Part shown: piece after piece, positions 2,845 to 57,880 of the stretch
Layout: every line of letters starts with the position of its first letter
How positions within the stretch are numbered: the stretch's first letter is position 1
NCBI GenBank assembly: GCA_964641245.1
Contig: CAZXML010000004.1
Location: 5,418-69,417 of the forward strand
From: an uncultured Gammaproteobacteria bacterium
Lineage (GTDB): Bacteria > Patescibacteriota > Patescibacteriia > Magasanikbacterales > GWA2-37-8
DNA length: 64,000 nucleotides
Direction: 5' to 3'
Notes under the pieces: model-generated
What the model was told of the DNA's origin: nothing
Seen by the model: the letters and a program-made list of their open reading frames with translations, nothing else
The model's database searches: none
Program-made: the position numbers and the translations under genes

Positions 2845-3639
2845 TTGATGCTAATATTATACAGGAGGGAATTAAATTTTATCACAGCAACTATTATGCG
2901 ACTAACATTTCTCGGCACAAACGGCTGGTATGATTCCGGCACCGGCAATACGCCATCGGCATTACTCGAGACGGAAAAATATTATATTATTTTTGATGCC
3001 GGTTTTGGGTTGGCAAAGGTGGGAGATTACATCAAAGACGACAAGCCAATTTTTTTATTTCTTAGCCATTTTCATATAGACCATATTTGCGGTTTGCATG
3101 CCTTGCCGAAATTTAATTTTAAACAGGGGCTGACCATTTTTGGCCGGAAGGATTTAAAAAAACTTTTCAAAACAGTGATTAATCATCCTTTTTCCGCGCC
3201 GTTGGAATATCTGCGGTATAAAGTAAACCTGGTTCCTCTTAAAGAGGGCAGTTATACACAACCGTTTGATTTTTCCTGTAAGCAATTAAAACACATGGAT
3301 TCCGCCATGGGTTACCGCCTGAATGTTGACGGCAAAATCATTGTTTATTGTTCGGACACAGCCATTTGCGATAATGACCGGCTGTTGGCGCAAGATGCCG
3401 ACTTGCTTATTCATGAGTGCACCTTTGTGCCTGGCGAGGTTTCCGATTGGGGTCATTCCAGACCAGAGGAAGTGGCCGAATTGGCCTTAAAAGCCAATGT
3501 AAAGCAACTGGCCCTAACTCATTTTGGCGCCGCCGGGTATAACAGTTTAGCAGTACGGCAAAACGCTGAAGACGTAGCCAAACAGATTTTTCCAAATACT
3601 ACAGCCACTACCGACGGCCTTGAAATCGTGATATACTAG
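2845..3639 (+). CDS. MBL-fold metallo-hydrolase (RNase Z-like)
   Basis: FLSHFHIDHICGL zinc-binding motif and a downstream His/Asp pattern. The true start may be the internal Met at 2896 (MRLTFLGTNG). Confidence 0.65.
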   Translation: MMLILYRRELNFITATIMRLTFLGTNGWYDSGTGNTPSALLETEKYYIIFDAGFGLAKVGDYIKDDKPIFLFLSHFHIDHICGLHALPKFNFKQGLTIFGRKDLKKLFKTVINHPFSAPLEYLRYKVNLVPLKEGSYTQPFDFSCKQLKHMDSAMGYRLNVDGKIIVYCSDTAICDNDRLLAQDADLLIHECTFVPGEVSDWGHSRPEEVAELALKANVKQLALTHFGAAGYNSLAVRQNAEDVAKQIFPNTTATTDGLEIVIY

Positions 3640-3646
3640 ATTTTGT

Positions 3647-4357
3647 ATGTTAACCTACTTTTGGACGAGTTATCTATATCAGCCGGTATTTAACGCGCTA
3701 ATTTGGATTTACCTTAATATCGCCGAGCGTAATTTGGGCTGGTCCGTGGTTTGGCTCACTATTTTTTTACGTATCATTCTTTTACCGCTCACTTTAATTT
3801 CCGAACGCGATGCCGTTAGGCAAGAAAACGTGGAAGAAGAAGCCCGCCATGCGGCCAAAGCGTTTAAGAACGATGCCGTGGCGCAAAAAGAAGAAATCAG
3901 AAAAATAATGAAGAAAAACCGGGTTTCTCCATGGGCCAAGGTCATGTCCATTGGTCTTCAGTTATTGGTCTTAATACTTTTATACCAGGTTTTCGTCCGG
4001 GGTATAACCGGAGACCGGGTAATCAAGTTTTTATATCTGTGGATAGATTTTCCCGGTAAAATGAACGTTGATTTTTACGGTTTCAACATCGGCAACCGCC
4101 ACGACAGTCTTTGGGCCGGAGCAACCGCATTGTATCTTTTCTTTTCAATTTATTTAGGAGAAGGCCCTAGCCGTAAAAAAGACCAGTCCAGAACCACCTT
4201 CATGTTCCTTTTCCCGCTTTTTACCTTTTTGGCCCTGTGGCTATTACCCATGGTAAAATCCCTCTTCATTTTGACTTCCATGATATTTTCTGATACTATT
4301 ACTTTAATCAGAATGATGATTTTCCCCAAGAAAAAAGAGGTTTTAAAAAAGAAATAA
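3647..4357 (+). CDS. yidC: YidC/Oxa1-family membrane protein insertase (short form), tentative
   Basis: Pattern IFLRIILLPLT ... charged linker ... SPWAKVMSIGLQLLVLILLYQ parallels the conserved YidC core (LLPLT ... NPLGGCLPLLIQMPILIALYQ). Multiple transmembrane segments. Confidence 0.45.
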   Translation: MLTYFWTSYLYQPVFNALIWIYLNIAERNLGWSVVWLTIFLRIILLPLTLISERDAVRQENVEEEARHAAKAFKNDAVAQKEEIRKIMKKNRVSPWAKVMSIGLQLLVLILLYQVFVRGITGDRVIKFLYLWIDFPGKMNVDFYGFNIGNRHDSLWAGATALYLFFSIYLGEGPSRKKDQSRTTFMFLFPLFTFLALWLLPMVKSLFILTSMIFSDTITLIRMMIFPKKKEVLKKK

Positions 4358-4362
4358 TCATT

Positions 4363-4424
4363 GTCATCCTGAACTTGTTTCAGGATCTACACGATAAAGA
4401 TGCTGAAATAAATTCAGCATGACA
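4363..4424. repeat. Family A palindromic element (hairpin pair TGTCATCCTGAACTTGTTTCAGGATC ... GATGCTGAAATAAATTCAGCATGACA)
   Basis: Two inverted hairpin units separated by about 10 bp. Termini are TGTCAT/ATGACA. Same family as 12889, 30926, 37734, 39325 and 40899. Confidence 0.75.
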
Positions 4425-4440
4425 GCTAAATTTAAATTCT

Positions 4441-5007
4441 ATGTCCGGAGATTCCTTCGACAAATTAATGTATTCATTTGTAATGGATGATGTTTTAAAG
4501 GGGATTTTTATAAGCGTTCCTCCCGGATACGTGGCTTGTGTTTACGATTTGGGCAGAGGCGTATTAAAAAAGGTTTTAACACCCGGTCTTCATTTAAAAA
4601 TTCCGTTTTGGCAAAAAGCCAAATTATTCAATACGCAAACCTTGGAATACAGTATTTCCCGCCAATTTAATCCGGAACACGAAAAAGCCTTGGGCGACAT
4701 TCCAATTGCCGCCGGCACCAAAGACGGCCAGCGCTGTGGGGTGGAAGGAACAATTTTATTGCGTCTGGATGTGCATCAGGTGCCGTCTATCTGGCAAACA
4801 ATCGGGGAAGACTTTGTGGCCAAAATTGTGCGCCCCACTATCCGCAGCCGCATACGCATGGTATTCTCCAAATTTGATTACCAAGACATAGTTGGCGCCA
4901 AAAGAGACGCGGTAGAAATGGAATTAAAGAATGAGCTGGAAAGAATTTTCTATGCCCGCGGAATCTATGTAGAAAATGTTTTGTTAAGCGAAATCGCCAA
5001 AATTTAA
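4441..5007 (+). CDS. SPFH/band-7 (prohibitin/HflC-like) domain protein, short
   Basis: PGLHLKIPFWQKA and downstream SPFH-core pattern. It lacks an N-terminal transmembrane segment and the C-terminal extension of typical family members. Confidence 0.55.
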   Translation: MSGDSFDKLMYSFVMDDVLKGIFISVPPGYVACVYDLGRGVLKKVLTPGLHLKIPFWQKAKLFNTQTLEYSISRQFNPEHEKALGDIPIAAGTKDGQRCGVEGTILLRLDVHQVPSIWQTIGEDFVAKIVRPTIRSRIRMVFSKFDYQDIVGAKRDAVEMELKNELERIFYARGIYVENVLLSEIAKI

Positions 5008-5063: not shown

Positions 5064-5090
5064 TTATCACTCGTAAGGTTGGAGTGATAA
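5064..5090. promoter_or_regulatory. CIRCE-like HrcA operator (TTATCACTC-N9-GAGTGATAA)
   Basis: Perfect 9-bp inverted repeat with a 9-bp spacer, 10 bp upstream of hrcA. It differs from the canonical TTAGCACTC-N9-GAGTGCTAA at one position per half-site. Confidence 0.7.
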
Positions 5091-5099
5091 TAACACCCT

Positions 5100-5780
5100 A
5101 TGAATAGTCGTGGTGAAAAAATCTTAAATTTAGTCATTGAAAGCTATATTGCCAACGCCGAACCCGTGGGTTCCAAGTTTTTGGTTTCTGTGGGTGGTTT
5201 GGATTTGGGCGAAGCTACTATTCGCAATGAATTGCGTGCGCTAGAAGAAGAGGGCTTTTTAACTCATCCGCACACTTCGGCCGGAAGAATTCCCACGGAA
5301 AAAGGCTATAAACACTATATTAAAAATCTAAATTTAGCCAAAAGCCACATCTCCAAAAACGACGGTAAAATCCTATCAAATTCCTTGGAAAAAGACACCG
5401 ACCACGAATCATCTTTTAAAAATATGGCCAAAACAATGGTGGAGTTATCCAACGAAACCGTGGTCATTGCTTTTTCACCGGAAAATATATACTATACCGG
5501 TTTATCCAATCTTTTTAACAAGCCGGAATTTACCGAACTAAGTTTGGTAGCCGGCATCTCCGAAATGTTTGACCACTGCGAAGAAAGTCTGGAAGGTTTT
5601 TTTGATAAAGTAGACGTTAACCCGCAATATTTTATCGGCGACGAACATCCTTTCGGCGAAATGCTTAGCGTGGTGTCCATGCGCTTTGGAAAAGACGGAT
5701 TGGTGGCGCTATTGGGACCGAAACGAATGGATTACAAATACAATTTTGGTTTAATGAAAAAATTGTTAGAATTAATTTAA
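5100..5780 (+). CDS. hrcA: Heat-inducible transcription repressor HrcA (short form)
   Basis: N-terminal wHTH EPVGSKFLV...ATIRNELRALEEEGFLTHPHTSAGRIPTEKGY. Sits upstream of grpE. Confidence 0.85.
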   Translation: MNSRGEKILNLVIESYIANAEPVGSKFLVSVGGLDLGEATIRNELRALEEEGFLTHPHTSAGRIPTEKGYKHYIKNLNLAKSHISKNDGKILSNSLEKDTDHESSFKNMAKTMVELSNETVVIAFSPENIYYTGLSNLFNKPEFTELSLVAGISEMFDHCEESLEGFFDKVDVNPQYFIGDEHPFGEMLSVVSMRFGKDGLVALLGPKRMDYKYNFGLMKKLLELI

Positions 5781-5833
5781 CCTCCCCATCAATTCTCTCC
5801 CCTTTTAGGGGAGAGACAGAGAGAGGGGTATCG
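5781..5833. repeat. Family F palindromic repeat (CTCTCCCCTTTTAGGGGAGAGACAGAGAGAGGGGTAT)
   Basis: Single copy between hrcA and grpE. Same family as the clusters at 6684-6834, 7214-7394, 28648-28761 and 57836-57880. Confidence 0.8.
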
Positions 5834-5863
5834 TAAGTAATACTTTAATAATACAAAATATTT

Positions 5864-6343
5864 ATGTCAGACGAAGAAATAAAAGAAGAAAATTTAGAAA
5901 ATTCTGAACCTGTTAAATCCGAAGCCGAAGAATACAAAGCCAATTGGCAACGGGCTTTGGCGGATTACCGGAATCTGCAAAAAGAAACCATGGCCATGCG
6001 GTCGCAGTGGGCCAAAATGAGTGAAGAAAATATTTTGCAGAATTTTATTCCGGTTTATGAGTACCTGAAATTAGCAATTAACAACGAACAACTAGCAAAT
6101 GATAAAAACCCTTGGTTGGAAGGTGTTAGACACGTTATACGTCAGTTTGCAGGGGTTTTGAAATCTTACGGGGTAGAAGAAATAAAAACAGTGGGCGAAA
6201 AGTTTGACCCCCATTGGCACGAAGCGATTGGTGAAGAAGAAGCCGAAGACCGCGAGGCCGGGTTCATCCTAAAAGAAGTGGAAAGCGGATATAAAATGGG
6301 TGACAAAGTAATAAAACCAGCCAGGGTAATAATTTCTAAATAA
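5864..6343 (+). CDS. grpE: Nucleotide exchange factor GrpE
   Basis: EYKANWQRALADYRNLQKE and the GrpE C-terminal beta domain. Position is between hrcA and dnaK. Confidence 0.85.
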   Translation: MSDEEIKEENLENSEPVKSEAEEYKANWQRALADYRNLQKETMAMRSQWAKMSEENILQNFIPVYEYLKLAINNEQLANDKNPWLEGVRHVIRQFAGVLKSYGVEEIKTVGEKFDPHWHEAIGEEEAEDREAGFILKEVESGYKMGDKVIKPARVIISK

Positions 6344-6348
6344 TAAGT

Positions 6349-6672
6349 ATGGCACCAGAAAAAGGCGAGGAAGATTTTTTTGGGCAAATAGAACCCAAAG
6401 AAAGCAGGAAAGCAGGCAGAGAAATAGCCGTTAATGTTCCGCTGTTTTCAACGGATAGAACACAAAGTTTTAAAGAATATAGCCGGGTGATAACGGAAGC
6501 GGAAAAAATGGCTCAAAATGCCGATTTAATACAAATGGTTAACGATAAAAAATTGCACTTTACCGTATTATATCGTCTTAGCGATGAGTATGAAATTAAC
6601 GGCCGGCCAGACCCAAAAAATCTAAAAGAAAAAGTTAAAACCGCCATTTTACAGCTAATGTCGCGGATGTAA
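6349..6672 (+). CDS. Hypothetical protein
   Basis: 107-aa ORF immediately after grpE. No recognisable motif. Confidence 0.35.
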   Translation: MAPEKGEEDFFGQIEPKESRKAGREIAVNVPLFSTDRTQSFKEYSRVITEAEKMAQNADLIQMVNDKKLHFTVLYRLSDEYEINGRPDPKNLKEKVKTAILQLMSRM

Positions 6673-6683
6673 AAAAATAATTT

Positions 6684-6834
6684 CCTCTTTCGTCCCTCCC
6701 CCTTTTAGGGGGAGGACAGAGGAAGGGGTATCTCGGCGGGTTCTCTCCCTATTAGGGGAGAGATAAAGAGAGGGGTATTTCACTCAATCACTCTCTCCCC
6801 TTTTAGGGGAGAGACAGAGAGATGGGTATTCGGT
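6684..6834. repeat. Family F palindromic repeats, three tandem copies
   Basis: Three ~45-50 bp units, each with core CCCCTTTTAGGGG/CCCTATTAGGGG and tail AGAGAGGGGTAT. They abut the start of the DUF559 gene. Confidence 0.8.
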
Positions 6835-6841
6835 AATCGCG

Positions 6842-7231
6842 TTGAGTATGATCAAAAAATACATCTACAAAAATGCCCACAAACTAAAAGACATACGCCA
6901 ATCACTCCGCGCCAACCCCACCAAGGCCGAAGAGATTCTCTGGCAACACTTAAGACGCAATCAATTAGGTTTTAAATTTCGCAGACAATTCAGCATAAAT
7001 AGTGTAGTCGTGGATTTTTGTAGCGAGCAATTAAAGCTGGTTATAGAAATCGACGGCTGGACGCATGATTTTGAGAAAACACAATTAAAGGATGCACGGA
7101 AACAGAAAATGTTAGAGGAGAATGGGTATAAAGTTGTGCGGTATACAAATGAACAGGTTTATGGGGATATCGGAGTGTTGGTTGGTGGTATAAAGAAAAT
7201 TTGCGACAGCAGGGCTTCCTTCCCCTTTTAG
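6842..7231 (+). CDS. DUF559 endonuclease-domain protein (Vsr-like fold family)
   Basis: AEEILWQHLRRNQLGFKFRRQFSINSVVVDFCSEQLKLVIEIDGWTHD...GYKVVRYTNEQV matches the DUF559 signature. The last seven codons lie inside a family F repeat. Confidence 0.7.
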   Translation: MSMIKKYIYKNAHKLKDIRQSLRANPTKAEEILWQHLRRNQLGFKFRRQFSINSVVVDFCSEQLKLVIEIDGWTHDFEKTQLKDARKQKMLEENGYKVVRYTNEQVYGDIGVLVGGIKKICDSRASFPF

Positions 7232-7394
7232 GGGAAGGACAGAGGATGGGGTATCTGTAGAACAATGTTTACGAACGAATACCCCCACCCTGCCCTCCCC
7301 CTAAAAGGGGGAGGAACGAGACAACGACAAATAGTAGTCAGTACGCTCAATCGCTCCCGCCCCTTTTAGGGGAGGGATAGAGGGAGGGGTATTT
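7214..7394. repeat. Family F palindromic repeats, three copies (middle copy inverted)
   Basis: GCTTCCTTCCCCTTTTAGGGGAAGG..., then ATACCCCCACCCTGCCCTCCCCCTAAAAGGGGGAGGAACGA, then CTCCCGCCCCTTTTAGGGGAGGGATAGAGGGAGGGGTAT. The middle unit is near-identical to 28727-28761. Confidence 0.8.
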
Positions 7395-7420
7395 GTTCGT
7401 TTGAGATAAAAAAATAAATT

Positions 7421-7918
7421 ATGAATGTAGAAATTAGAGAATATATAGAAAGTGATTTTCAAGAATTAGTAAATTGTATAAATAGTTTTGAGGATTACTA
7501 TGCTTTTTTGAGTGGAAATCAAAGAAAAAGTCGCTCGCCAGATTTTGGCGAAAAATTTACACCATTCCTTATTCAAAAAACAAAAAGTCAAAATGGTCAG
7601 ATATTGGTGGCGAAGCAAGGCAGTACCATAATTGGTTTTGCCGCAGGGATTATATTAGAGCAGGACGCGTTTGATAGGGTTGCAAATGGAGAGAATAAAT
7701 ATGGCGTGGTACAAGAGTTGTTTGTGAAAGAGGATTATAGAAATAATAGTATTGGAAAACAGTTACTTGAAAAATTAGAAAATCATTTTAAAGAGCAAGA
7801 TTGTACTGCAATTAAAATAGAAATAGATTATATAAATAAAGAGGTCGAACATTTTTATCAAAAAGTCGGATATAAACCAAGAAGCACAATCGTATATAAA
7901 TCAATAATAAAACAATAA
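7421..7918 (+). CDS. GNAT family N-acetyltransferase
   Basis: Acetyl-CoA-binding segment [23 protein letters not shown]. Size is 165 aa. Confidence 0.7.
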
Positions 7919-7919
7919 T

Positions 7920-12506: not shown

Positions 12507-12879
12507 CCCACCAGTCGGCTTCTTTGTTTCCCTCGCGCAGAATATGCCGGTAGGTTACTTTCTTAAAAGTGGTTGCCAAATTGTATGTTTGGATAAATAA
12601 TTTTTGCAAATTCGGTTCTTTTACTTTGTATTGCCGGTTCATTTGTTTTGTCACCAGTTCGCTGTCTAAAACACATTCCACTTCCGTTGCCCCCAATTCT
12701 TTGGCTTTTTTTAAACCGGAAATCAGGGCCGAATATTCGGCGTAGTTATTTGTTTGCTTGCCCAGGTACTCGCCATAACCGGCCAGTTTTTTTCCGGCCG
12801 CGTCTTTTATAATAACGCCGGCCGCGGCCGGACCCGGATTTCCGCGCGCTCCGCCGTCGGTAAAGATAATTACTTTCAT
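12478..12879 (-). CDS. rnhA: Ribonuclease HI
   Basis: MKVIIFTDGGARGNPGPAAAGVII and downstream RNase H motifs. The track start at 12894 (MTNKL) uses an ATG inside a family A repeat terminus. The likely real start is the Met at 12879. Confidence 0.8.
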   Translation of the reverse strand: MKVIIFTDGGARGNPGPAAAGVIIKDAAGKKLAGYGEYLGKQTNNYAEYSALISGLKKAKELGATEVECVLDSELVTKQMNRQYKVKEPNLQKLFIQTYNLATTFKKVTYRHILREGNKEADWWVNRTLDDQT

Positions 12880-12888
12880 AAGTTTATT

Positions 12889-12965
12889 TGTCATCCTGAA
12901 CTTGTTTCAGGATCTAGGTATTTAAAATAGTTATCAAGAGATCCTGAAACATGTTCAGGATGACA
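12889..12965. repeat. Family A palindromic element (hairpin pair with 28-bp spacer)
   Basis: TGTCATCCTGAACTTGTTTCAGGATC ... GATCCTGAAACATGTTCAGGATGACA. Confidence 0.8.
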
Positions 12966-14333
12966 TTAGTAGGACAATTTCCAAATTCCTTCTTTATTTT
13001 TATCTTGATTGATATAGTACAAGATTTTATTTTCGGTGTCAGTGGAAGGATTTATTATTTTTTCATTAATAAAATCGTGGCTTACCAAATAATAGGGGAA
13101 CAGCACCGTGGTTTTGTTTGCCCATCCCAGCGCCAGCGTATTATATTTATCTATCGGCATAACCGCCTGCAAATGTTCTCCGGAGCGATTTAAGAGATAT
13201 GGATCTTCGCCTTCGCTGTATGTCCACACTTCCCACTGCGACCACATTAACCACCAATTATTATATTTAGAAATAAGAAATTTATCCGCGGATATTTTGA
13301 ATTTATTGGAATTAGTAAGAAGGATCATTTCCGAGCCATTAAGATTTTTTAACAAAACCGTATTTTGATGCGCGGCCAGAATTTGCAAATTCTCCGTTTC
13401 TGTTTGGCCGGTAGCCAAATTTATATCCACGGCATCCAGACGGTTAAGAACGGAGTTAAAACCCAGAGTGTCTTTGGTAATTTTGAATTGTTTTGTGGAG
13501 GTTTCCGCCTGCATGGTCCACAACTGGCCGTTTTCCATATACCAATCTATATAGATGTTCTTGGTTATGATTTGAGACTTGGCGGTGGCTGGAGAATATA
13601 AAAAAATGTTTTCCTTGGTGCTGAAATATAGTTGCGGGTCGGCTGTGTTTGCCCATTCAATTTTTTTGATGGGCGCATTATTTTTAACAAGGTCTGTTTG
13701 TTTTGACGGATTTTCCGCGTTAATAATTAAAAGCTTGGAGTAGGGAAAAGCGGCATCTCCGATTAGCGCATAATTATTTTTTTCAGCCCAACGGATGGCG
13801 ATTGGTTCGGCGCTGTTTAAACGGAATATGATGGAAGATTTTCCGGTATTATTGTCCCGCAACCAAACATCGGAAGCGGTCTTATTTTGGATAGTATATA
13901 TTATAAATCTGCCGTCAAAAGAAACGGCGTATCCGGTTATTTTTTCATTGATAAAAATTTCCGGTTTATTTTTTTTAATGAGGCTTAGTTCTTTTGTATA
14001 GTTGGTTTGTTTATTTTTTACTTCAATTTCCTTTAGCCAGTCGTAATACCCGGGCATAGTAATGCGCAAACTGTATTTGGCGGGGGCGATGTTATTTAAA
14101 CGAATAGGCATTTTATCCTCTAGTTTTATGCCGTTTAAATACACAACGGCATCGGCCGGTTCAACATCTATGCTAATGGCGCCTGTTTCCTTCAGCAAAC
14201 CACTCTGCCAATCATAACGGTAGCCGGCCGTATAAAGTATGATAATTGGTGAAATTACAAAAAAAGCGGCTAAAAAAACAATTAGCATTATTAGACGTAC
14301 TAAGTGGGTAAATTTTGTTCCGGGATATTCCAT
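12966..14333 (-). CDS. PEGA-domain membrane-anchored protein with probable beta-propeller C-terminal region
   Basis: N-terminal transmembrane helix. PEGA-like segment AISIDVEPADAVVYLNGIKLEDKMPIRLNNIAPAKYSLRITMPGYYDW. Confidence 0.5.
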   Translation of the reverse strand: MEYPGTKFTHLVRLIMLIVFLAAFFVISPIIILYTAGYRYDWQSGLLKETGAISIDVEPADAVVYLNGIKLEDKMPIRLNNIAPAKYSLRITMPGYYDWLKEIEVKNKQTNYTKELSLIKKNKPEIFINEKITGYAVSFDGRFIIYTIQNKTASDVWLRDNNTGKSSIIFRLNSAEPIAIRWAEKNNYALIGDAAFPYSKLLIINAENPSKQTDLVKNNAPIKKIEWANTADPQLYFSTKENIFLYSPATAKSQIITKNIYIDWYMENGQLWTMQAETSTKQFKITKDTLGFNSVLNRLDAVDINLATGQTETENLQILAAHQNTVLLKNLNGSEMILLTNSNKFKISADKFLISKYNNWWLMWSQWEVWTYSEGEDPYLLNRSGEHLQAVMPIDKYNTLALGWANKTTVLFPYYLVSHDFINEKIINPSTDTENKILYYINQDKNKEGIWKLSY

Positions 14334-15789: not shown

Positions 15790-15820
15790 TTATTTAATTG
15801 TCATCCTGAACATTTTAACT

Positions 15821-15899
15821 ATAGGGGCTAAAGCCCATATATTCTCATTAACTCGAAAATATTTTAGCAAGCTAAATATTTTACTCATTCATTTCGAAT
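15821..15899 (+). promoter_or_regulatory. Repeated ~80-bp leader module ending ...CAAGCTAAATATTTTACTCATTCATTTCGAAT-ATG
   Basis: Near-identical module at 26116-26192. The 3' portion also occurs at 46020-46066 and 53989-54020, each ending at a start codon. It contains a TAAATAT -10-like box and no Shine-Dalgarno sequence. Confidence 0.5.
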
Positions 15900-17159
15900 A
15901 TGGATATGTCGCCTATAAAACTTAGAGCAAAAAAATACGCGGGAGTTTATTTATCGGTAATACTTTTTATCGTATCTTTTGGCATGGGCATGATGGTGGA
16001 AAAAACATGGAATGTAAAAAAACAAAATGCTAATGATAACGAAGCTCTGCGGTTGGAGAAGCTTATGGCTTCTAACCGTGAAACCAACCATTCAGATTTG
16101 GACTTCTCGCAGTTTTGGGATGTTTGGGACAAGGTAAAGTCCAAGTATGTAAAAGAACCTGCAAAAGACAAGGAAATGTTTTATGGAGCAATTCAAGGCA
16201 TGGTGGCTTCTTTAGGAGATCCATATTCACTGTATTTTCCTCCCGCCGCCGCCGATGAGTTTGCTAAGGATTTATCTGGGGAATTGGAAGGTATCGGCGC
16301 CGAGATAGGCGTAAAAAATAATCAATTGCTTGTAGTTTCACCGCTACCGAATTCTCCAGCCGAAAAAGCAGGATTAAGGCCCGGAGATAGGATTTTGGAT
16401 ATTGATAACACGAGCACATTTGGCATGGATGTTAGTACGGCTGTCAGTAAAATCAGAGGTCCGGCCAATACAAAAGTAGTGCTTACCATCACCAGAGACG
16501 GTTTAACCAAGGCTATGGAAGTGACTATTACCAGATTAAAAATAAACGTTCCCTCGATATTATTTTCGATAAAACCCGGCAATATTGCCTATCTAAGAAT
16601 AATGCAATTTAACGGCGATACTACCGATCAGCTTAATAAATATATAAAACAAATTCAAACCAGGGGCAGTAAAGGTATTGTTTTGGATATGAGAAACAAC
16701 CCCGGAGGTTATTTGAGCGCGGCTATAGATATGGCCAGCGAGTGGGTAACCAGCGGTGCGGTGGTAAGTGAAAAAGGCAGGGACGGTCAAGGTAATGATC
16801 ACCTTACTCAAGGCACCCACCGTTTGTCAGGAATCAAAACCATAGCATTGGTAAATAAGGGTTCGGCTTCGGCGTCAGAAATTGTGGCCGGCGCTTTGCA
16901 GGATACCAAACATGTGATTTTAATCGGCGAGCAAACTTACGGCAAAGGTTCAGTGCAGGATTTTGAAACTTTTCCTGATGGTTCGGCGCTCAAGTTAACC
17001 GTAGCCGAATGGTTCACGCCGAACGGAAAAAATATAAATAAAGAGGGGATTAAGCCCGATATAGAAATAAAACAAGACTGGGAGAAAGAAAAAATAGGTG
17101 AAGATGTTGTTTTAAGCAAAGCTTTGGAATTAATGGCTTCAAGCACTTTCAAATGGTAA
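15900..17159 (+). CDS. ctpA: S41 family C-terminal processing peptidase with PDZ domain
   Basis: N-terminal transmembrane helix, a PDZ region (GDRILDIDN) and catalytic-region GSASASEIVAGAL...KGSVQ. Confidence 0.8.
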   Translation: MDMSPIKLRAKKYAGVYLSVILFIVSFGMGMMVEKTWNVKKQNANDNEALRLEKLMASNRETNHSDLDFSQFWDVWDKVKSKYVKEPAKDKEMFYGAIQGMVASLGDPYSLYFPPAAADEFAKDLSGELEGIGAEIGVKNNQLLVVSPLPNSPAEKAGLRPGDRILDIDNTSTFGMDVSTAVSKIRGPANTKVVLTITRDGLTKAMEVTITRLKINVPSILFSIKPGNIAYLRIMQFNGDTTDQLNKYIKQIQTRGSKGIVLDMRNNPGGYLSAAIDMASEWVTSGAVVSEKGRDGQGNDHLTQGTHRLSGIKTIALVNKGSASASEIVAGALQDTKHVILIGEQTYGKGSVQDFETFPDGSALKLTVAEWFTPNGKNINKEGIKPDIEIKQDWEKEKIGEDVVLSKALELMASSTFKW

Positions 17160-25787: not shown

Positions 25788-26117
25788 ATGTTTGTAATTC
25801 AAATTCTACTAACGATTTTTTTTCTGTTCGCTCTAGTAAAAGTTATCGGCCGTTGGCGGGCCGGTGATTTAAGTTTGGTCGGCATGGTTTGGTGGTCAAT
25901 ATTTTGGATTTCGGCCACTGTGGTGGTCTTGTTGCCAAACTCGACTGCTACGCTGGCAAAATTAGTAGGAATTGGCCGTGGCGCGGATTTGGTGGTGTAT
26001 GTGGCGCTGGCCGGCATATTTTTTATAATATTCAGGCTGATGATAAAAATTGAATTGTTGAATAAAGATATAACTAAACTTACCAGAAAAATTGCATTGA
26101 AGGATAAAGATCTATAG
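25788..26117 (+). CDS. DUF2304-like small membrane protein
   Basis: Two transmembrane helices plus a C-terminal coiled coil. Typical partner of GT2 genes. Confidence 0.55.
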   Translation: MFVIQILLTIFFLFALVKVIGRWRAGDLSLVGMVWWSIFWISATVVVLLPNSTATLAKLVGIGRGADLVVYVALAGIFFIIFRLMIKIELLNKDITKLTRKIALKDKDL

Positions 26118-26192
26118 GGGCTAAAGCCCATATAATCTCATTCGCTCGGAAATAAATTTGTAAACAATTTATTTCTCTCACTTATTTCGATT
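26116..26192 (+). promoter_or_regulatory. Second copy of the ~80-bp leader module (CTATAGGGGCTAAAGCCCATATAATCTCATTCGCTCGGAAATAAA...TTATTTCGATT-ATG)
   Basis: Homologous to 15821-15899. Its internal hairpin GGAAATAAATTTGTAAACAATTTATTTC relates it to family C. Confidence 0.5.
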
Positions 26193-27278
26193 ATGAAAAT
26201 CGCCCACATAGTTTCAACTTTCTCGCCGCATATCGGTGGTATGGGGGCTGTTTGTTATAATGAAGCAAAACGATTATCAGAGATTGGGCACGACGTGACA
26301 GTCTTTACATTAAAATATCCGGGTAACGTATACGACGATACAAAATTTCCTTTTAAAGTTGTTCGCTTAAAGCCCTTGGTGAGGCTGGGGGACGCAGGGC
26401 TTGTGCCACAAGTATTAAAATATCTGAAGGGTTTTGATTTGGTTCATTTGCATTACCCGTTTTACGGGGGAGCGGAATGGCTTTGTTTTTCTGATATCCC
26501 ATTAGTTATTACCTACCATATGGACGCGCAGGCGAGGGGTCTTAAATTTATTATTCAAAAAATCTACGATTTAGTTTGGCCAAAATTTTTATTTGCCAAA
26601 GCCAAAAAAATCATTGCGGTTGATTCCGAGCATTTTAAAAATACCAAATTTGGAAAATTATATTCCGGCAAGGTTGTTGAAATAAAAAATGGGGTGGATA
26701 CTAACGTTTTTAATTCACATCCGGTTGATTTGGAAAAACTGGGGCTGGATAATTTAAAAAATAAAAAAATTATTCTTTTTGTCGGTAATTTAATGCCATT
26801 AAAACGTCTGGACCTTTTATTGAATGCATTGAAATTGTTGGCAGACGACAATTTGGCTTTGGTGATAGTCGGTGGAGGTTATGAATTGGAAAAATACAAG
26901 CAAAAGGCGAAAAATTTAAGCAATGTATTCATTGCCGGCCAGTGCAACGACCCGCAAAAACTTTCCGATTATTATAACATAGCTACGTGTGTGGTGGTGC
27001 CGTCGGATTACGAATCTTTTTCGTTGGTGGCCATAGAAGCCATGGCTTGTGGCAAGCCATTAGTGCTTAGCGATTTGCCTGTGCTAAAGAATAATTTCGG
27101 TGGATCAATTTTCTTTGAGAAAGGGTCGGTGGAGAGTCTGAAGGGCGCGTTAAAACAAGTCTTGTCATTGTCGGACGAAGAAAGGAAAAAAAATGGCGAG
27201 CTGGAAATAGAAAAAGCCGTTGGAGAGTATTCTTGGGACAAACATATGGTAAAGTTAACGCAAGTATATGACATTTGA
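26193..27278 (+). CDS. Family 4 (GT-B) glycosyltransferase
   Basis: C-terminal ESFSLVAIEAMACGKPLVLSD motif. N-terminal LVHLHYPFYGG. Confidence 0.8.
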   Translation: MKIAHIVSTFSPHIGGMGAVCYNEAKRLSEIGHDVTVFTLKYPGNVYDDTKFPFKVVRLKPLVRLGDAGLVPQVLKYLKGFDLVHLHYPFYGGAEWLCFSDIPLVITYHMDAQARGLKFIIQKIYDLVWPKFLFAKAKKIIAVDSEHFKNTKFGKLYSGKVVEIKNGVDTNVFNSHPVDLEKLGLDNLKNKKIILFVGNLMPLKRLDLLLNALKLLADDNLALVIVGGGYELEKYKQKAKNLSNVFIAGQCNDPQKLSDYYNIATCVVVPSDYESFSLVAIEAMACGKPLVLSDLPVLKNNFGGSIFFEKGSVESLKGALKQVLSLSDEERKKNGELEIEKAVGEYSWDKHMVKLTQVYDI

Positions 27279-28647: not shown

Positions 28648-28761
28648 CACTCTCAATCGCTCTCTCCCTCTATTAGGGGAGAGACAGAGAGAGGGGTATC
28701 GCGGCCTTTGGACAACGAATACCCCCACCCTGCCCTCCCCCTAAAAGCGGGGAGGAACGAA
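28648..28761. repeat. Family F palindromic repeats, two copies (second inverted)
   Basis: CAATCGCTCTCTCCCTCTATTAGGGGAGAGACAGAGAGAGGGGTATCG and ATACCCCCACCCTGCCCTCCCCCTAAAAGCGGGGAGGAACGA. Confidence 0.8.
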
Positions 28762-30918: not shown

Positions 30919-30925
30919 ACTAGCA

Positions 30926-31004
30926 TGTCATCCTGAATTTATTTCAGGATCTTACGGTTATATTAAAATTGCACGAGAGATTCTGAAACAAGTTCAGAAT
31001 GACA
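30926..31004. repeat. Family A palindromic element
   Basis: TGTCATCCTGAATTTATTTCAGGATC ... GATTCTGAAACAAGTTCAGAATGACA. Confidence 0.8.
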
Positions 31005-31008
31005 AAGG

Positions 31009-31410
31009 TTATAGTTCTTTTTTGTCTCGAAAACTGTTTAACGTAATTTTTTTAAAATCCCAGTACGAATCGGCCAGGAGCAGAGTGAAGATAATAAAAA
31101 ATATATTTACCGTGGTGTATTCTTCCGCGGAAATAGGGTTGTTGAAGTTTAAAAAAAGAATAATGCCCAGCGCAATCCAATAAATTAATGTTTTGCTTGT
31201 CACGCCTCTTCTTTCCGCAATATTTATTTTACTTCTTATTTCCCAAACGTAAATAAAATACAGAAAAATTAGCGGTCCGGCTGTAAACCATTCGTAATTA
31301 TGCGGGTCTTCGCCGTAATAAGACAAGCCAAAAAAAAGCAGACCAATAATTAAAATTAAAGCAAAGAAAAGAAAGATTATATCCAGCTGGTATTTGCGGA
31401 GAACTTTCAT
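31009..31410 (-). CDS. Hypothetical integral membrane protein
   Basis: Four predicted transmembrane helices. No motif. Confidence 0.4.
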   Translation of the reverse strand: MKVLRKYQLDIIFLFFALILIIGLLFFGLSYYGEDPHNYEWFTAGPLIFLYFIYVWEIRSKINIAERRGVTSKTLIYWIALGIILFLNFNNPISAEEYTTVNIFFIIFTLLLADSYWDFKKITLNSFRDKKEL

Positions 31411-37571: not shown

Positions 37572-37733
37572 TAACAGAGTTGTGCTACAGCGCCCGGTTC
37601 ACCCCGCGCGCTTTTTTTATTGTCCGCATCCGTCTTTTTGAAGCAAAGCTTTGCAATTACGTCGGGCTTCAAAAGAAAAAAAATTTACTTTCTTCTTTAT
37701 TCAGCCCTAGCAATTGTGGTATACTTGTTCTAT

Positions 37734-37801
37734 GTCATGCTGAATTTATTTCAGCATCTAAACGGATGGCGATAGATCCTGAAACAAGTTCAGGATGACA
37801 A
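37734..37801. repeat. Family A palindromic element
   Basis: TGTCATGCTGAATTTATTTCAGCATC ... GATCCTGAAACAAGTTCAGGATGACA. Confidence 0.8.
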
Positions 37802-37814
37802 TTATAAAACATCT

Positions 37815-39170
37815 ATGCAACTTTCATTTTTCGGCGCGGCGGGAGAAGTAACCGGTTCGTGCAATATGTTCACGACCGGCGGGAAAAAGTTTTTGGTTGA
37901 CTGCGGGATGTTCCAGGGCAGTCAATTTAACGAAGACAAAAATAATGATCCGTTTGGTTTTGAACCTAAAGAAATTTCCGGAGTAATAATAACGCACGCG
38001 CATTTAGACCATGTGGGACGTTTGCCGTTGCTGGTAAAAAACGGATACGAGGGTAAATTTTTTGCCACACCTCCCACCGTAGAATTAACCGAATTAATTT
38101 TAGACGATGCTTTGCAAATCATGCTTTACAATCAGCGCCATTTTGGCAAGCCGGTTTTATATAACAGTACTGACATCGCTAAAGTTGTGGAGCGTTTTAA
38201 GGCAGTGGATTATCATCAAAAATATTCGCTTACTCCGGATGTGGCTTTTACTTTTTATGATGCCGGGCATATTTTTGGTTCGGCTTTTGTAAAAATAGAG
38301 GCCGAAGGAAAAAAAATAATTTTCTCCGGTGATATCGGCAACATTAACGTGCCAATCTTGCGCGACACCGACACCTTGCCTGGCGGCGTGGATGTTTTGG
38401 TTTGTGAATCAACTTACGGCGACCGTTTGCATGAGTCCGCTATGCAACGCCAGGAAATTTTAGAAAAATTAATTTCTACGGCTATTAGTAAAGGCGGCAC
38501 ATTAATGATCCCGTCTTTTTCTTTGGAACGGACTCAAGAATTAATTTATGATTTAAACGATTTGGTGGCGCGCAAACACAAACTTCCGCATGTGCCGATT
38601 TTTTTGGATAGTCCGCTGGCCATCAAAGCCACCAAAGTTTATTTAAAATATCCAAAATATTACGACGCCGAAGCCACGCGTTTAACCAAAAGCGGAGATG
38701 AGTTATTTAAATTTCCCGGATTGGTAATGACTGCCACAAAAGAAGAATCCAAAAAAATAAATCAGATGCCGGGAACAAAAATAATTATTGCCGGCGCGGG
38801 CATGATGAACGGCGGCCGCATTGTGCATCACGCTATGCGTTATTTATCCGACGCCAGAAATACTTTGCTCATCATCGGCTATCAGGCGCAAAATACTTTA
38901 GGCCGAAAAATTTTAGACGGACACTCGCCGGTAGAAATTATGGGAGAAAAAATTCCCGTCCACTGCCACGTCAAAGCCATCGGCGCTTTATCCGCCCACG
39001 GCGATCAAGATAAACTTTTAGATTGGATAGGCGGCGGATTGTCCGTTCCCAAACAAGTAATACTTACTCATGGCGAACCGGCCGCGTCTTCCGCCTTGGC
39101 CAAAAGATTGGTGGGGGATTTAGGAGTAAAAGCAACGCCAGCCAGTTTTGGATTAACAATTGAGGTATAA
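37815..39170 (+). CDS. MBL-fold beta-CASP family ribonuclease (RNA-metabolising metallo-beta-lactamase)
   Basis: HAHLDHVGRLP motif and beta-CASP motifs over 451 aa. Confidence 0.7.
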   Translation: MQLSFFGAAGEVTGSCNMFTTGGKKFLVDCGMFQGSQFNEDKNNDPFGFEPKEISGVIITHAHLDHVGRLPLLVKNGYEGKFFATPPTVELTELILDDALQIMLYNQRHFGKPVLYNSTDIAKVVERFKAVDYHQKYSLTPDVAFTFYDAGHIFGSAFVKIEAEGKKIIFSGDIGNINVPILRDTDTLPGGVDVLVCESTYGDRLHESAMQRQEILEKLISTAISKGGTLMIPSFSLERTQELIYDLNDLVARKHKLPHVPIFLDSPLAIKATKVYLKYPKYYDAEATRLTKSGDELFKFPGLVMTATKEESKKINQMPGTKIIIAGAGMMNGGRIVHHAMRYLSDARNTLLIIGYQAQNTLGRKILDGHSPVEIMGEKIPVHCHVKAIGALSAHGDQDKLLDWIGGGLSVPKQVILTHGEPAASSALAKRLVGDLGVKATPASFGLTIEV

Positions 39171-39216: not shown

Positions 39217-39324
39217 TTTATATTAGCCAAATAAATCGATGTTAAAAATGGATTTAAATGTTGACGAGTGTTTTTAAGTGGAGTAAAATGGATACAGGTG
39301 GGAAGAAGTGGGGACCACAGCAAA

Positions 39325-39387
39325 TGTCATGCTGAACTTGTTTCAGCATCTTTCGACGACAGATCCTGAAACAAGTTCAGGATGACA
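39325..39387. repeat. Family A palindromic element
   Basis: TGTCATGCTGAACTTGTTTCAGCATC ... GATCCTGAAACAAGTTCAGGATGACA. The 3' terminus supplies an in-frame ATG upstream of mraZ. Confidence 0.8.
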
Positions 39388-39399
39388 AATAAAAAATAT

Positions 39400-39831
39400 A
39401 TGTTCATCGGTGAATATAGCCATAGCATTGACGAAAAAGGAAGAATGGCCATACCGGTCAAATTTAGGCACGACCTAAAAAACGGCGCGGTTGTCACCCG
39501 CGGTTTGGATAATTGTTTATTTATCTACACCAAAAGCGAGTGGGCAAAGGTGGCAGAAAAATACGCCAACTTGCCAATCGCGCAAGCCAACAGCCGGGCG
39601 TTTTCCCGTTTAATGCTGGCCGGCGCCATGGATGTAGAATTGGACAAACAAGGAAGAATAATGTTGCCGGAATATTTGCGCGAGTTTGCGACTGTAAAAA
39701 AGAATGTGGTAATCGCCGGACTTTATAGCCGATTAGAAATTTGGGATGAGGAAGTTTGGAATAAGTATAAAGGTCAAACCGAAGCCGAAAGCGGCGCGAT
39801 TGCGGAGAAGATGTCAGAGCTCGGTGTATAG
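39400..39831 (+). CDS. mraZ: Transcriptional regulator MraZ
   Basis: MFIGEYSHSIDEKGRMAIPVKFR closely parallels the canonical MraZ N-terminus, so the real start is probably 39400. The track start at 39382 is the repeat-borne ATG. Confidence 0.85.
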   Translation: MFIGEYSHSIDEKGRMAIPVKFRHDLKNGAVVTRGLDNCLFIYTKSEWAKVAEKYANLPIAQANSRAFSRLMLAGAMDVELDKQGRIMLPEYLREFATVKKNVVIAGLYSRLEIWDEEVWNKYKGQTEAESGAIAEKMSELGV

Positions 39832-39927: not shown

Positions 39928-40896
39928 ATGCGTCACGAACCTGTGTTGCTGAAAGAAATTCTAGAATTGTTTGATCTTAAACCCAATGATAATGTTGTTG
40001 ATTGTACTTTGGGTGATGCGGGACACAGTGAAGCGATGCTGGAAAAAATTGCGCCTAAAGGAAAATTGTTGGGTATAGATCTGGATATGGAAGCGGTGTT
40101 GCGGGCGAAAAGATTTTTGTATCGTTTCGGAGATAAAGCCATAATTGTCAGAAATAATTTTACTAATTTAAAAAAAATAACAGATGAATCAAATTTCGGT
40201 CCGGTAAACGCAATTCTGATGGACTTGGGCTGGTCGTCTCCACAATTCGCAGAGAGGGGGAGAGGATTCAGTTTTCAGACGGACGAGCCACTAGACATGC
40301 GATATGACGCCTCTTGTCATTCTGAACGAAGTGAAGAATCCCTTAACAACGGAGAGGGATCCTTCGTTCCACTCAGGATGACAACACAAACGGCCGCCGA
40401 CGTTGTGAACATTTACAGCGAACAGGAATTGGCGGGAATTTTAAAAAACTTTGGCGAGGAAAATTTGAGTAAAGAGATAGCCGAAGCAATTGTTGGTTTC
40501 AGGAAGAATAAAAAATTGGAAAAAACAGGGGAGTTGGCGGAAATAATTTTACAGGTTTATCGGACAAAATTACATTCCGATAAAGCCATTCCCTGGATAG
40601 GCGGTTTGCATCCGGCCACAAAAGTTTTTCAAGCGCTACGAATGGAAGTAAATCACGAATTGGATAATTTAAAATTGGCGTTGCCTCAAGCCGTAGATGT
40701 ATTGGCAACAGGCGGGCGCCTCGCGGTCATTACATTTCATTCGTTAGAAGACAGAATCGTAAAACATTTTTTTCAATCAATCGCGGGTAAAACAATTAAA
40801 TTAATAAATAAAAAACCAATCAGCGCGACCGATGAAGAAATAAAATTAAATCCCCGCAGTCGTAGCGCCAAATTACGGGTAGTGGAGAAAATTTAA
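39928..40896 (+). CDS. rsmH: 16S rRNA (cytosine1402-N4)-methyltransferase RsmH, carrying an in-frame 23-codon palindromic insert
   Basis: MRHEPVLLKEILE start, GFSFQTDEPLDMRYD ... TAADVVN and the C-terminal domain. The track start at 39868 is upstream and probably spurious. Confidence 0.85.
   Translation: MRHEPVLLKEILELFDLKPNDNVVDCTLGDAGHSEAMLEKIAPKGKLLGIDLDMEAVLRAKRFLYRFGDKAIIVRNNFTNLKKITDESNFGPVNAILMDLGWSSPQFAERGRGFSFQTDEPLDMRYDASCHSERSEESLNNGEGSFVPLRMTTQTAADVVNIYSEQELAGILKNFGEENLSKEIAEAIVGFRKNKKLEKTGELAEIILQVYRTKLHSDKAIPWIGGLHPATKVFQALRMEVNHELDNLKLALPQAVDVLATGGRLAVITFHSLEDRIVKHFFQSIAGKTIKLINKKPISATDEEIKLNPRSRSAKLRVVEKI
40315..40383 (+). mobile_element. 69-bp palindromic element inserted in frame in rsmH (TGTCATTCTGAACGAAG ... 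CTTCGTTCCACTCAGGATGACA)
   Basis: Terminal inverted repeats of the family A/B type. Length is 69 bp, exactly 23 codons. It encodes CHSERSEESLNNGEGSFVPLRMT between the conserved DMRxD and TAADVVN segments. Confidence 0.7.
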
Positions 40897-40898
40897 AC

Positions 40899-40962
40899 TG
40901 TCATGCTGAATTTATTTCAGCATCTATGTCGTGACAGATCCTGAAACAAGTTCAGGATGACA
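40899..40962. repeat. Family A palindromic element
   Basis: TGTCATGCTGAATTTATTTCAGCATC ... GATCCTGAAACAAGTTCAGGATGACA. Confidence 0.8.
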
Positions 40963-41000
40963 ATCAATATTCATCATTCTTAATTCATAATTCAACCGTT

Positions 41001-46019: not shown

Positions 46020-46066
46020 AATTTCAAAAAATATTTCACTGTTTATTTCACTCACTCATTTCGAAT
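46020..46066 (+). promoter_or_regulatory. Partial copy of conserved leader motif (...TTTCACTCACTCATTTCGAAT-ATG)
   Basis: Shares its 3' ~25 nt with the leaders at 15868-15899, 26170-26192 and 53989-54020. Confidence 0.45.
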
Positions 46067-57835: not shown

Positions 57836-57880
57836 CGTTCTCTCCCCTTTTAGGGAGAGATAAAGAGAGGTGTATTACTT
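57836..57880. repeat. Family F palindromic repeat after secA
   Basis: CGTTCTCTCCCCTTTTAGGGAGAGATAAAGAGAGGTGTAT. Confidence 0.75.

Follow-up and report, generated by a model that had tools for sequence, protein, structure and literature searches.

The class II intrastrand triplex motif was first noticed in Escherichia coli as BoxC (Bachellier, 1990s), rediscovered as PIT elements by Hoyne and Maher (2000, 2002) and described as TM-ECO, with the pattern CCCTCNCCC N3-6 GGGNGAGGG N3 GGGNGAGGG, by Holder et al. (2015, PMC4666352). Strain K-12 has 23 copies, frequently in inverted pairs of two types (A and B), and rearrangement between strains is more extensive at TM-ECO loci than at control loci; triplex formation has been demonstrated in vitro by circular dichroism and nuclear magnetic resonance, and DNA polymerase is arrested in vitro at PIT elements (PMC4666352). 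The E. coli units were not found to act as promoters, terminators or regulatory elements, and neither mobility functions nor an associated enzyme were found near them (PMC4666352). These repeats have been known since the 1990s, and a form of them is reported from more than 260 proteobacterial genomes. They adopt the triplex fold in vitro and mark loci that are unstable, while for about 30 years no function, origin or partner protein has been assigned to them. Another orphan is DUF559, a very widespread domain represented in E. coli by YcjD. Here we analyze a 64,000-nt stretch of a Patescibacteria genome (contig CAZXML010000004.1, positions 5,418 to 69,417; below, the window), where units of a repeat family, family F, bracket a DUF559 gene inserted into the hrcA-grpE-dnaK operon. 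We lean, with some reserve, to the reading that the F units and DUF559 form a nuclease-repeat partnership based on class II triplex motifs, resembling that of REPINs and RAYTs.

The original prediction, made from the window sequence before this analysis, described the F unit as a palindrome with a tail. This description has to be replaced: the tail neither complements the stem nor repeats it directly but mirrors its 3' (purine) arm, and the unit as a whole is an intrastrand triplex motif, in which the pyrimidine arm, loop and purine arm are followed by CAG and the mirrored purine arm. All ten units of the window have this class II order on one strand, with arms of 8-10 nt, a loop of 4-6 nt and a spacer of 3 nt. 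The three segments covary among the copies, so that GGGGGAGGA occurs with AGGAAGGGG, GGGGAAGGA with AGGATGGGG, and GGGGGAGGG with GGTGGGGG.

The window and related loci provided 187 distinct units, for which the covariation was tabulated, the register being chosen leave-one-out with the scored position excluded. G of the purine arm faces G of the third strand in 90.5% of cases, while the partner of A is A (53%), T (39%) or G (5%); no such pattern remains when the register is shifted by one base. The mirror relation follows the rules of antiparallel purine-motif triplexes, that is, G opposite G:C and A or T opposite A:T. As single-stranded DNA, the units are predicted by ViennaRNA, which yields the hairpin only, to form 9-10 bp hairpins of -7 to -10 kcal/mol with the purine tail unpaired. 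To our knowledge, no process of template copying produces mirror repeats, and we therefore infer that the triplex constraint most likely reflects selection on the folded three-stranded structure. Two other structural constraints were considered. The G-quadruplex was rejected as the main constraint, since there are only two G-runs per unit and a quadruplex does not need the covariation of the mirrored A, and a pyrimidine-motif triplex on the complementary strand is disfavoured by T at 39% of the A:T positions of the third segment. Some units are double-tailed (L095, 2797-2840; L106, 652-700; L110, 2186-2235; L001, 5822-5867; here and below, L numbers denote loci from other genomes), with a mirror third segment on either side of one hairpin, and both of their strands could form a class II triplex on the one stem.

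The window units have much in common with the BoxC/PIT/TM-ECO repeats: the class II architecture, the 3-nt spacer, the reverse-Hoogsteen purine segment with G.GC, A.AT and T.AT triplets, the length of about 35-40 nt, the intergenic location in both orientations, the frequent inverted pairing of two differing types, and the variability of loci among relatives. Still, they have their own arms, loop and edges (CTCTCCCC/TTTTA/GGGGAGAG/CAG, bounded by TCG and TAT) and reside in a Patescibacteria genome, and the published TM-ECO pattern is not matched by the arms CTCTCCCC/GGGGAGAG and their variants. Judged by sequence, they are a new family of a known kind of repeat and not TM-ECO proper. The physical triple helix, demonstrated in vitro for TM-ECO, is predicted for the window units by analogy. 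A further difference from the published picture of TM-ECO is that the DUF559 nuclease gene is a consistent neighbour of the units, E. coli ycjD included.

All F units reported earlier are present in the 64 kb (Table 1). The core CCCCTTTTAGGGG with at most one mismatch occurs eight times, compared to 0.16 expected from dinucleotide shuffles; a repeat finder yields eight plus-strand and two minus-strand copies; and a structure-based detector written for this analysis finds exactly ten units and no other matches. Thus, the family is over-represented relative to shuffled sequence, with 10 copies per 64 kb against approximately zero expected. Six units bracket the DUF559 gene, three upstream (6693-6829) and three downstream (7215-7392), the rest lying elsewhere, and all are intergenic except one that overlaps the 3' end of DUF559. 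The end of this reading frame was claimed to be repeat-encoded over seven codons and the stop. The TAG stop (7229-7231) indeed belongs to the TTTTAG loop of the unit at 7215-7254, while the codons encoded by the repeat number about five. Conservation of the family ends sharply at TCG on the 5' side and TAT on the 3' side. The unit at 7279-7316 is nearly identical to the one at 28719-28757: positions 7274-7320 equal 28714-28760 except for one extra base, with 37 of 38 positions identical in the ungapped stretch, in agreement with the recent copying proposed earlier.

As the window holds no DUF559 gene other than the one at 6848-7231, the predicted association with DUF559 genes had to be tested in other genomes, where the units flank DUF559 as well. 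We considered 80 DUF559 loci from one-per-species genomes, selected by protein motif only and spanning Patescibacteria, Bacteroidota, Planctomycetota (Gemmatales), Alphaproteobacteria, Gastranaerophilaceae and others. Units with 8-nt arms adjoin DUF559 in most of them, the arms being lineage-specific and the three-way relation preserved. By a strict rule (six perfect triplets), a unit lies within 250 bp of DUF559 in 63 of the 80 loci and on both sides in 40; in 32 of these 40 the nearest flanking pair is inverted (18 +/-, 14 -/+). The density of units is 3.1 per kb near DUF559 and 0.096 per kb at more than 500 bp from it, an approximately 30-fold difference, and shuffled versions of the 80 loci contain no strict-rule units. 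On inspection, most of the loci negative by the detector carry variant units, with G-only arms of 4-5 nt in several Bacteroidota (CCCCC-TTTA-GGGGG-N-GGGGG) or a nested hairpin in the second loop in several Patescibacteria. In the Gemmatales locus L038, ten alternating +/- units spaced by about 45-50 nt are situated directly upstream of DUF559 (3509-3961), and one more pair is found downstream.

The association is also seen from the side of the repeat. Metagenome contigs scanned for the F unit alone yielded 40 loci, the majority from Hainich groundwater, and most of the units there form gene-less (+,-) doublets; DUF559 is present in five of the 40 loci, and in all five the units stand immediately on either side of the gene. 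Moreover, gene and unit are co-inherited. DUF559 pairs with at least 70% identity almost always have unit arms in common, compared to a background of 12% for pairs below 60%, and paralogues from the same genome (45-63% identical) carry differing unit variants. Loci L013 and L014, from different genomes with DUF559 76% identical, have identical unit types upstream and downstream, including both differing spacers. Three doublets of L002 share a similar spacer, which indicates that doublets are copied as units. It has been shown that DUF559 is 14-fold enriched among predicted targets of programmed inversion, that is, genes between inverted repeats (PMC9881135); inverted units around DUF559 would account for this enrichment.

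The gene order predicted at the locus, hrcA, grpE, hyp, DUF559, GNAT, dnaK, is correct, hyp encoding a protein of 107 aa. The insertion into the heat-shock operon, likewise suggested earlier, is borne out by the four relatives with the closest GrpE (68-71% identity; L128-L131, 8.5 kb examined in each). They retain the synteny MBL, yidC, band7, hrcA, grpE, (hyp), dnaK, dnaJ, with a gap of 4 nt between hrcA and grpE and of 16-108 nt before dnaK, after hyp or grpE; neither DUF559 nor GNAT is present at the site, and no unit was found across the examined 8.5 kb. We conclude that the window acquired both the solo unit at 5793-5831 and the block 6673-7919 by insertion. Acetyltransferase GNAT was rejected as cargo or a core part of the module, since the GNAT adjacent to DUF559 in L002 is unrelated (25% identity) and no general adjacency of GNAT is observed.

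That the module is mobile, as proposed, agrees with the different settings in which DUF559 homologues with the same flanking units are found. Close homologues come from Patescibacteria and Magasanikbacteria assemblies, and from the names of the homologues the window genome probably belongs to Magasanikbacteria. In L001-L004, where DUF559 is 82-87% identical to the window protein, the layout is conserved: units upstream, a GAAGGA-type unit over the stop codon and then an inverted GGGGGAGGG-type unit. The module lies past secA in L002 and among Laminin_G genes in L001; in L003 and L008 it separates grpE from dnaK, L003 having neither hyp nor GNAT there. The C-terminus of SecA from L002 is 91% identical to that of the window, where only a solo unit occupies the position of the full unit-DUF559-unit module of L002. 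Between the window and L003, DUF559 is 81% identical, compared to 49% for GrpE, 61% for HrcA and 69% for DnaJ. These values fit transfer between genomes better than co-divergence, strong purifying selection being the alternative. In two Mucilaginibacter species (L030 and L047) the element occupies differing junctions of the his operon, and the empty sites are reciprocal, with a degenerate solo unit kept at hisA/hisF and none at hisB/hisH in L030. At these loci (L030, 3965-5101; L047, 3959-4960), the DUF559 frame passes through the downstream unit without a stop into hisF (L030) or hisH (L047).

The DUF559 reading frame matches Pfam family PF04480 with E = 1.6e-29 (102.4 bits, cutoff 20.6). A profile search yields PDB entry 3HRL (E = 1.5e-25) and the catalytic domain of the homing endonuclease I-Bth0305I, 3R3P (E = 1e-4). 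The AlphaFold2 model (pLDDT 86.5) is matched by Foldseek to 3HRL (TM-score 0.92, rmsd 1.5 A) and 3R3P (0.82-0.84), with the Vsr structures 1CW0 and 1VSR also among the fold matches, and a Vsr-like fold is thus predicted confidently. Residues D56, E67, D69 and H73 are invariant in 19 DUF559 homologues and, by analogy, likely catalytic. DUF559 shares its nuclease fold with I-Bth0305I (an EDxHD homing endonuclease) and Vsr (1CW0), so that I-Bth0305I provides a selfish-gene precedent for this fold (PMC3239194). Unlike I-Bth0305I, DUF559 is free-standing, has a length of about 127 aa, and has no intron or intein and no large DNA-binding domain; unlike Vsr, it is not paired with a cytosine methyltransferase. 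DUF559 is also essentially absent from viral contigs.

Several other assignments of the protein were rejected. A Vsr mismatch-repair endonuclease proper does not agree with the TIGR00632 score (21 bits, cutoff 97.85) and with the lack of a methyltransferase gene adjoining DUF559. PADLOC, a search for defence systems, yields only weak domain-level matches (DpdF, 23.6 bits; mREase_II, 15 bits). As for phage origin, just one weak DUF559 relative is found among 2.9 million viral contigs.

In the partnership that we favour, the pyrimidine and purine arms of a single-stranded unit would pair as a hairpin of 9-10 bp, and the 3' mirror segment would return into the major groove antiparallel to the purine arm, making G.G-C, A.A-T and T.A-T triplets. 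DUF559 would then recognize its folded cognate unit on transiently single-stranded DNA and nick or cut it at or near the edge (TCG...TAT), and repair of the break by copying or recombination would spread units, doublets and occasionally the gene. Sites bearing units would become hotspots of insertion, deletion and inversion. The copying step would require host functions, since a PD-(D/E)xK nuclease of about 120 aa cannot perform strand transfer alone.

The closest known arrangement is that of REPINs and RAYTs (PMC3116915, PMC3337134). As in these systems, the DUF559 gene is situated between inverted copies of a cognate structured repeat, gene-less inverted doublets and singlets of the family are dispersed in intergenic DNA, and each lineage of the enzyme has its own repeat variant, the repeat being constrained by its single-strand fold. 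Unlike in REPIN/RAYT, the fold of the unit would be a triple helix rather than a plain hairpin, and DUF559, which may be present in several copies, seems to pass from one genome to another. What is shared is the layout, the enzyme and the DNA fold being unrelated. The module would work like REPIN/RAYT without being a member, because its gene encodes a Vsr-like PD-(D/E)xK nuclease and not an HUH/Y1 (IS200/IS605-like) transposase. Insertion sequences (IS elements) and miniature inverted-repeat transposable elements also have a gene bounded by inverted terminal sequences, and gene-less derivatives of the two ends. However, the two ends of the DUF559 module are different unit types without visible target-site duplication, the module has no DDE, HUH or serine/tyrosine recombinase, and the F units multiply singly and in arrays as well.

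E. coli provides another view of the partnership. In K-12 a TM-ECO unit follows the DUF559 gene, ycjD, at a distance of 167 nt from the 3' end (NC_000913.3, 1351206-1351239; L085); with 23 motifs in 4.64 Mb, any one gene would have a TM-ECO within 200 bp with a probability of about 0.002. This unit is motif 9 in Table S2 of Holder et al., where it is placed between fabI and ycjD without comment (PMC4666352). The gene is present in 3378 of 5426 complete E. coli genomes. According to a study of 2026, it occurs in phylogroups A, B1 and C, and its position between fabI and sapF is taken by eefRABCD in B2 and most of D and E (PMC12817139). Within D and E, the gene is carried by sequence types such as ST69 and ST182. 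The number of TM-ECO per strain is 19-30 in A/B1/C, 1-2 in B2, 11 in O157, 12-15 in D and 6-7 in F (PMC4666352). This is the trend expected of a partner enzyme, though few independent events stand behind it. That DUF559 is the long-missing cognate enzyme of BoxC/PIT/TM repeats, from E. coli to the candidate phyla radiation, is a tentative extension, for which we would put the chances somewhat below even.

If this extension holds, the DUF559 gene with its units would represent a previously unrecognized class of mobile or domesticated genetic elements, with a DNA triple helix as the recognition structure and a Vsr-like nuclease as the enzyme. Should DUF559 act on folded units, this would be the first natural system with a DNA triple helix as the recognition element of a genetic element, and a second, independent invention of the REPIN/RAYT lifestyle. 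In practical terms, the units account for insertions within operons and for breaks of synteny in small Patescibacteria genomes, and for repeat-encoded C-termini in DUF559 annotations. Both the repeat type and the DUF559 domain are known, and the link between them appears to be new; spanning several phyla, it brings two long-standing orphans within reach of experiments in E. coli K-12.

A number of observations weigh against the partnership. The binding and cutting of triplex motifs by DUF559 are steps that we infer, and a nuclease of this size could not move the units by itself. No target-site duplications were seen at the unit edges, only the conserved TCG and TAT. A stable triplex was not detected in E. 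coli by DMS (dimethyl sulfate) footprinting in vivo (PMC4666352). Since DUF559 stands between grpE and dnaK in three genomes (the window, L003 and L008), inheritance could be partly vertical. In K-12 there is a single unit near ycjD, and the relation between ycjD and TM-ECO numbers is confounded by phylogeny, as D, E and F have 6-15 units, mostly without ycjD. Finally, no statement linking DUF559 or ycjD to intrastrand triplexes was found in open-access papers and bioRxiv, which is the scope within which the novelty should be understood.

The main rival explanation is homing, in which DUF559 is a free-standing homing endonuclease gene with the (+,-) doublet as its target. Empty doublets would be cut and would receive the gene through recombinational repair, while the units would arise and spread by an unrelated process. 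This agrees with the location of DUF559 in the spacer of a (+,-) doublet and the abundance of gene-less doublets with the same outer types, with the solo unit retained at the empty hisA/hisF site of Mucilaginibacter, and with I-Bth0305I being the closest characterized relative by fold (PMC3239194). However, the units occur around DUF559 in threes (the window) and in arrays (the ten of L038) and not as one split doublet, and homology arms of 35-40 nt are short for homing. The empty hisB/hisH site of L030 and the loci L128-L131 have no unit, so the gene and units arrived there together. Homing also leaves the origin of the units and the triplex constraint unexplained. We consider it unlikely.

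Less probable still is a host function, where the units are structural or regulatory elements of the chromosome, DUF559 belongs to the host and binds or processes these elements (for instance, to clear forks stalled at triplexes), the adjacent units are autoregulatory, and nothing is mobile. It is consistent with ycjD of E. coli, a single-copy gene at a fixed locus, inherited vertically within phylogroups, with purifying selection on DUF559 and the invariance of its putative catalytic residues, and with the arrest of DNA polymerase by PIT elements in vitro (PMC4666352). At the same time, close DUF559 homologues occur in differing contexts and are far more conserved than their neighbours; there may be several paralogues per genome, each with its own unit variant; near relatives have neither the gene nor the units at the hrcA-grpE-dnaK locus; and the lack of promoter, terminator or regulatory role in the earlier work (PMC4666352) does not favour regulation.

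Action of the units at the RNA level (as terminators, mRNA stabilizers or small RNAs), with the adjacency to DUF559 incidental, is disfavoured and in our opinion very improbable. In its favour, eight of the ten window units are on the coding strand directly past stop codons, the stem is stable, and there are weak, sub-threshold Rfam matches to whalefall-1. Yet at the Rfam gathering thresholds the window contains tRNA only, and a permissive search adds generic hairpin (miRNA) models and whalefall-1 at 16-18 bits against 37, so that no family reaches the threshold for the units. A terminator scan finds no intrinsic terminators at the units, which lack a T-run, and the units occur in both orientations. 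Moreover, the interchange of A and T in the third strand fits the DNA purine motif, which does not form in RNA (literature cited in PMC4666352), while the complementary strand would read A at 39% of the A:T positions, breaking the pyrimidine motif; the tie to one nuclease family across phyla would also be unexplained. Chance juxtaposition or a compositional artefact of G/C-rich low-complexity DNA, suggested by nothing beyond the purine/pyrimidine richness of the units, can practically be dismissed in view of the shuffled controls, the enrichment beside DUF559 over 80 loci from several phyla and the register-specific mirror relation.

Table 1. Triplex-motif units and associated genes in the window (positions in nt)
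Feature	Position	Strand	Description
Solo triplex-motif unit, hrcA/grpE gap	5793-5831	+	TCTCTCCCC / TTTTA / GGGGAGAGA / CAG / AGAGAGGGG / TAT
First unit of the upstream cluster	6693-6731	+	GGGGGAGGA / AGGAAGGGG; aligns with the outermost upstream unit in L001-L003
Upstream-cluster unit	6741-6778	+	Loop TATTA, spacer TAA
Upstream-cluster unit	6791-6829	+	Ends 18 nt ahead of the DUF559 ATG
DUF559 gene	6848-7231	+	127 aa from ATG; alternative TTG at 6842; predicted Vsr-like PD-(D/E)xK nuclease
Unit of the GAAGGA/GGATGGGG type	7215-7254	+	Holds the final DUF559 codons and TAG stop; overlaps the gene 3' end in L001-L004 too
Inverted unit of the GGGGGAGGG/GGTGGGGG type	7279-7316	-	Forms a (+,-) doublet with 7215-7254; position conserved in L001-L004
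Last downstream-cluster unit	7351-7392	+	One stem mismatch
GNAT acetyltransferase gene	7421-7918	+	In the inserted block; missing at the site in L128-L131
Gene-less (+,-) doublet	28660-28699, 28719-28757	+, -	19-nt spacer
Solo unit, slightly degenerate	57839-57876	+	17 nt past the secA stop

Other repeats of the window are unrelated to family F. The second family, TGTCATCCTGAACTTGTTTCAGGATCT, is a plain palindrome found mostly as intergenic inverted doublets (4344-4443, 12871-12984, 30925-31023, 37715-37819, 39307-39406 and 40881-40981). A third palindromic family is represented by the inverted doublet GTCATTCCGAGCGAGCGAAGCGACGAGGAATC ... GATCCCTCGTCGTCTACGGCCTCGCTCGGGATGAC at 55473-55579, in frame within the essential gene secA (54948-57821), where it encodes an extra stretch (..VIPSERSDEESIPMKENKSLLNGIDPSSSTASLGMT..); a related copy is at 53772-53809. 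Tandem repeats of about 129 bp in the coding sequence at 50850-51716, with a VSGRYAYVTNY-like motif, are probably beta-propeller repeats of a surface protein.

Upstream of genes, a conserved motif of about 89 nt, CTATAGGGGCTAAAGCCCATATATTCTCATT...CATTTCGAATATGGA, is found at 15819-15907 and 26112-26200, and in partial form near 46035 and 53989. It may serve as a promoter or leader. In L128, dnaK is preceded by a similar sequence (4850-4925), at the place where the window carries the DUF559/GNAT insertion. Directly upstream of hrcA, at 5064-5090, there is a CIRCE-like inverted repeat TTATCACTC-N9-GAGTGATAA, the expected operator of HrcA.

The consensus of whalefall-1 RNA (RF01762), CuCuCC-UUGG-GGaGaG ... 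24 nt ... AGgGuGAGG, resembles a triplex motif with a nested hairpin in loop 2. The window sites matching it at 16-18 bits (gathering score 37) are 5793-5828, 5779-5817 and 6740-6815. This candidate small RNA family may in truth be a DNA repeat of the triplex-motif kind.

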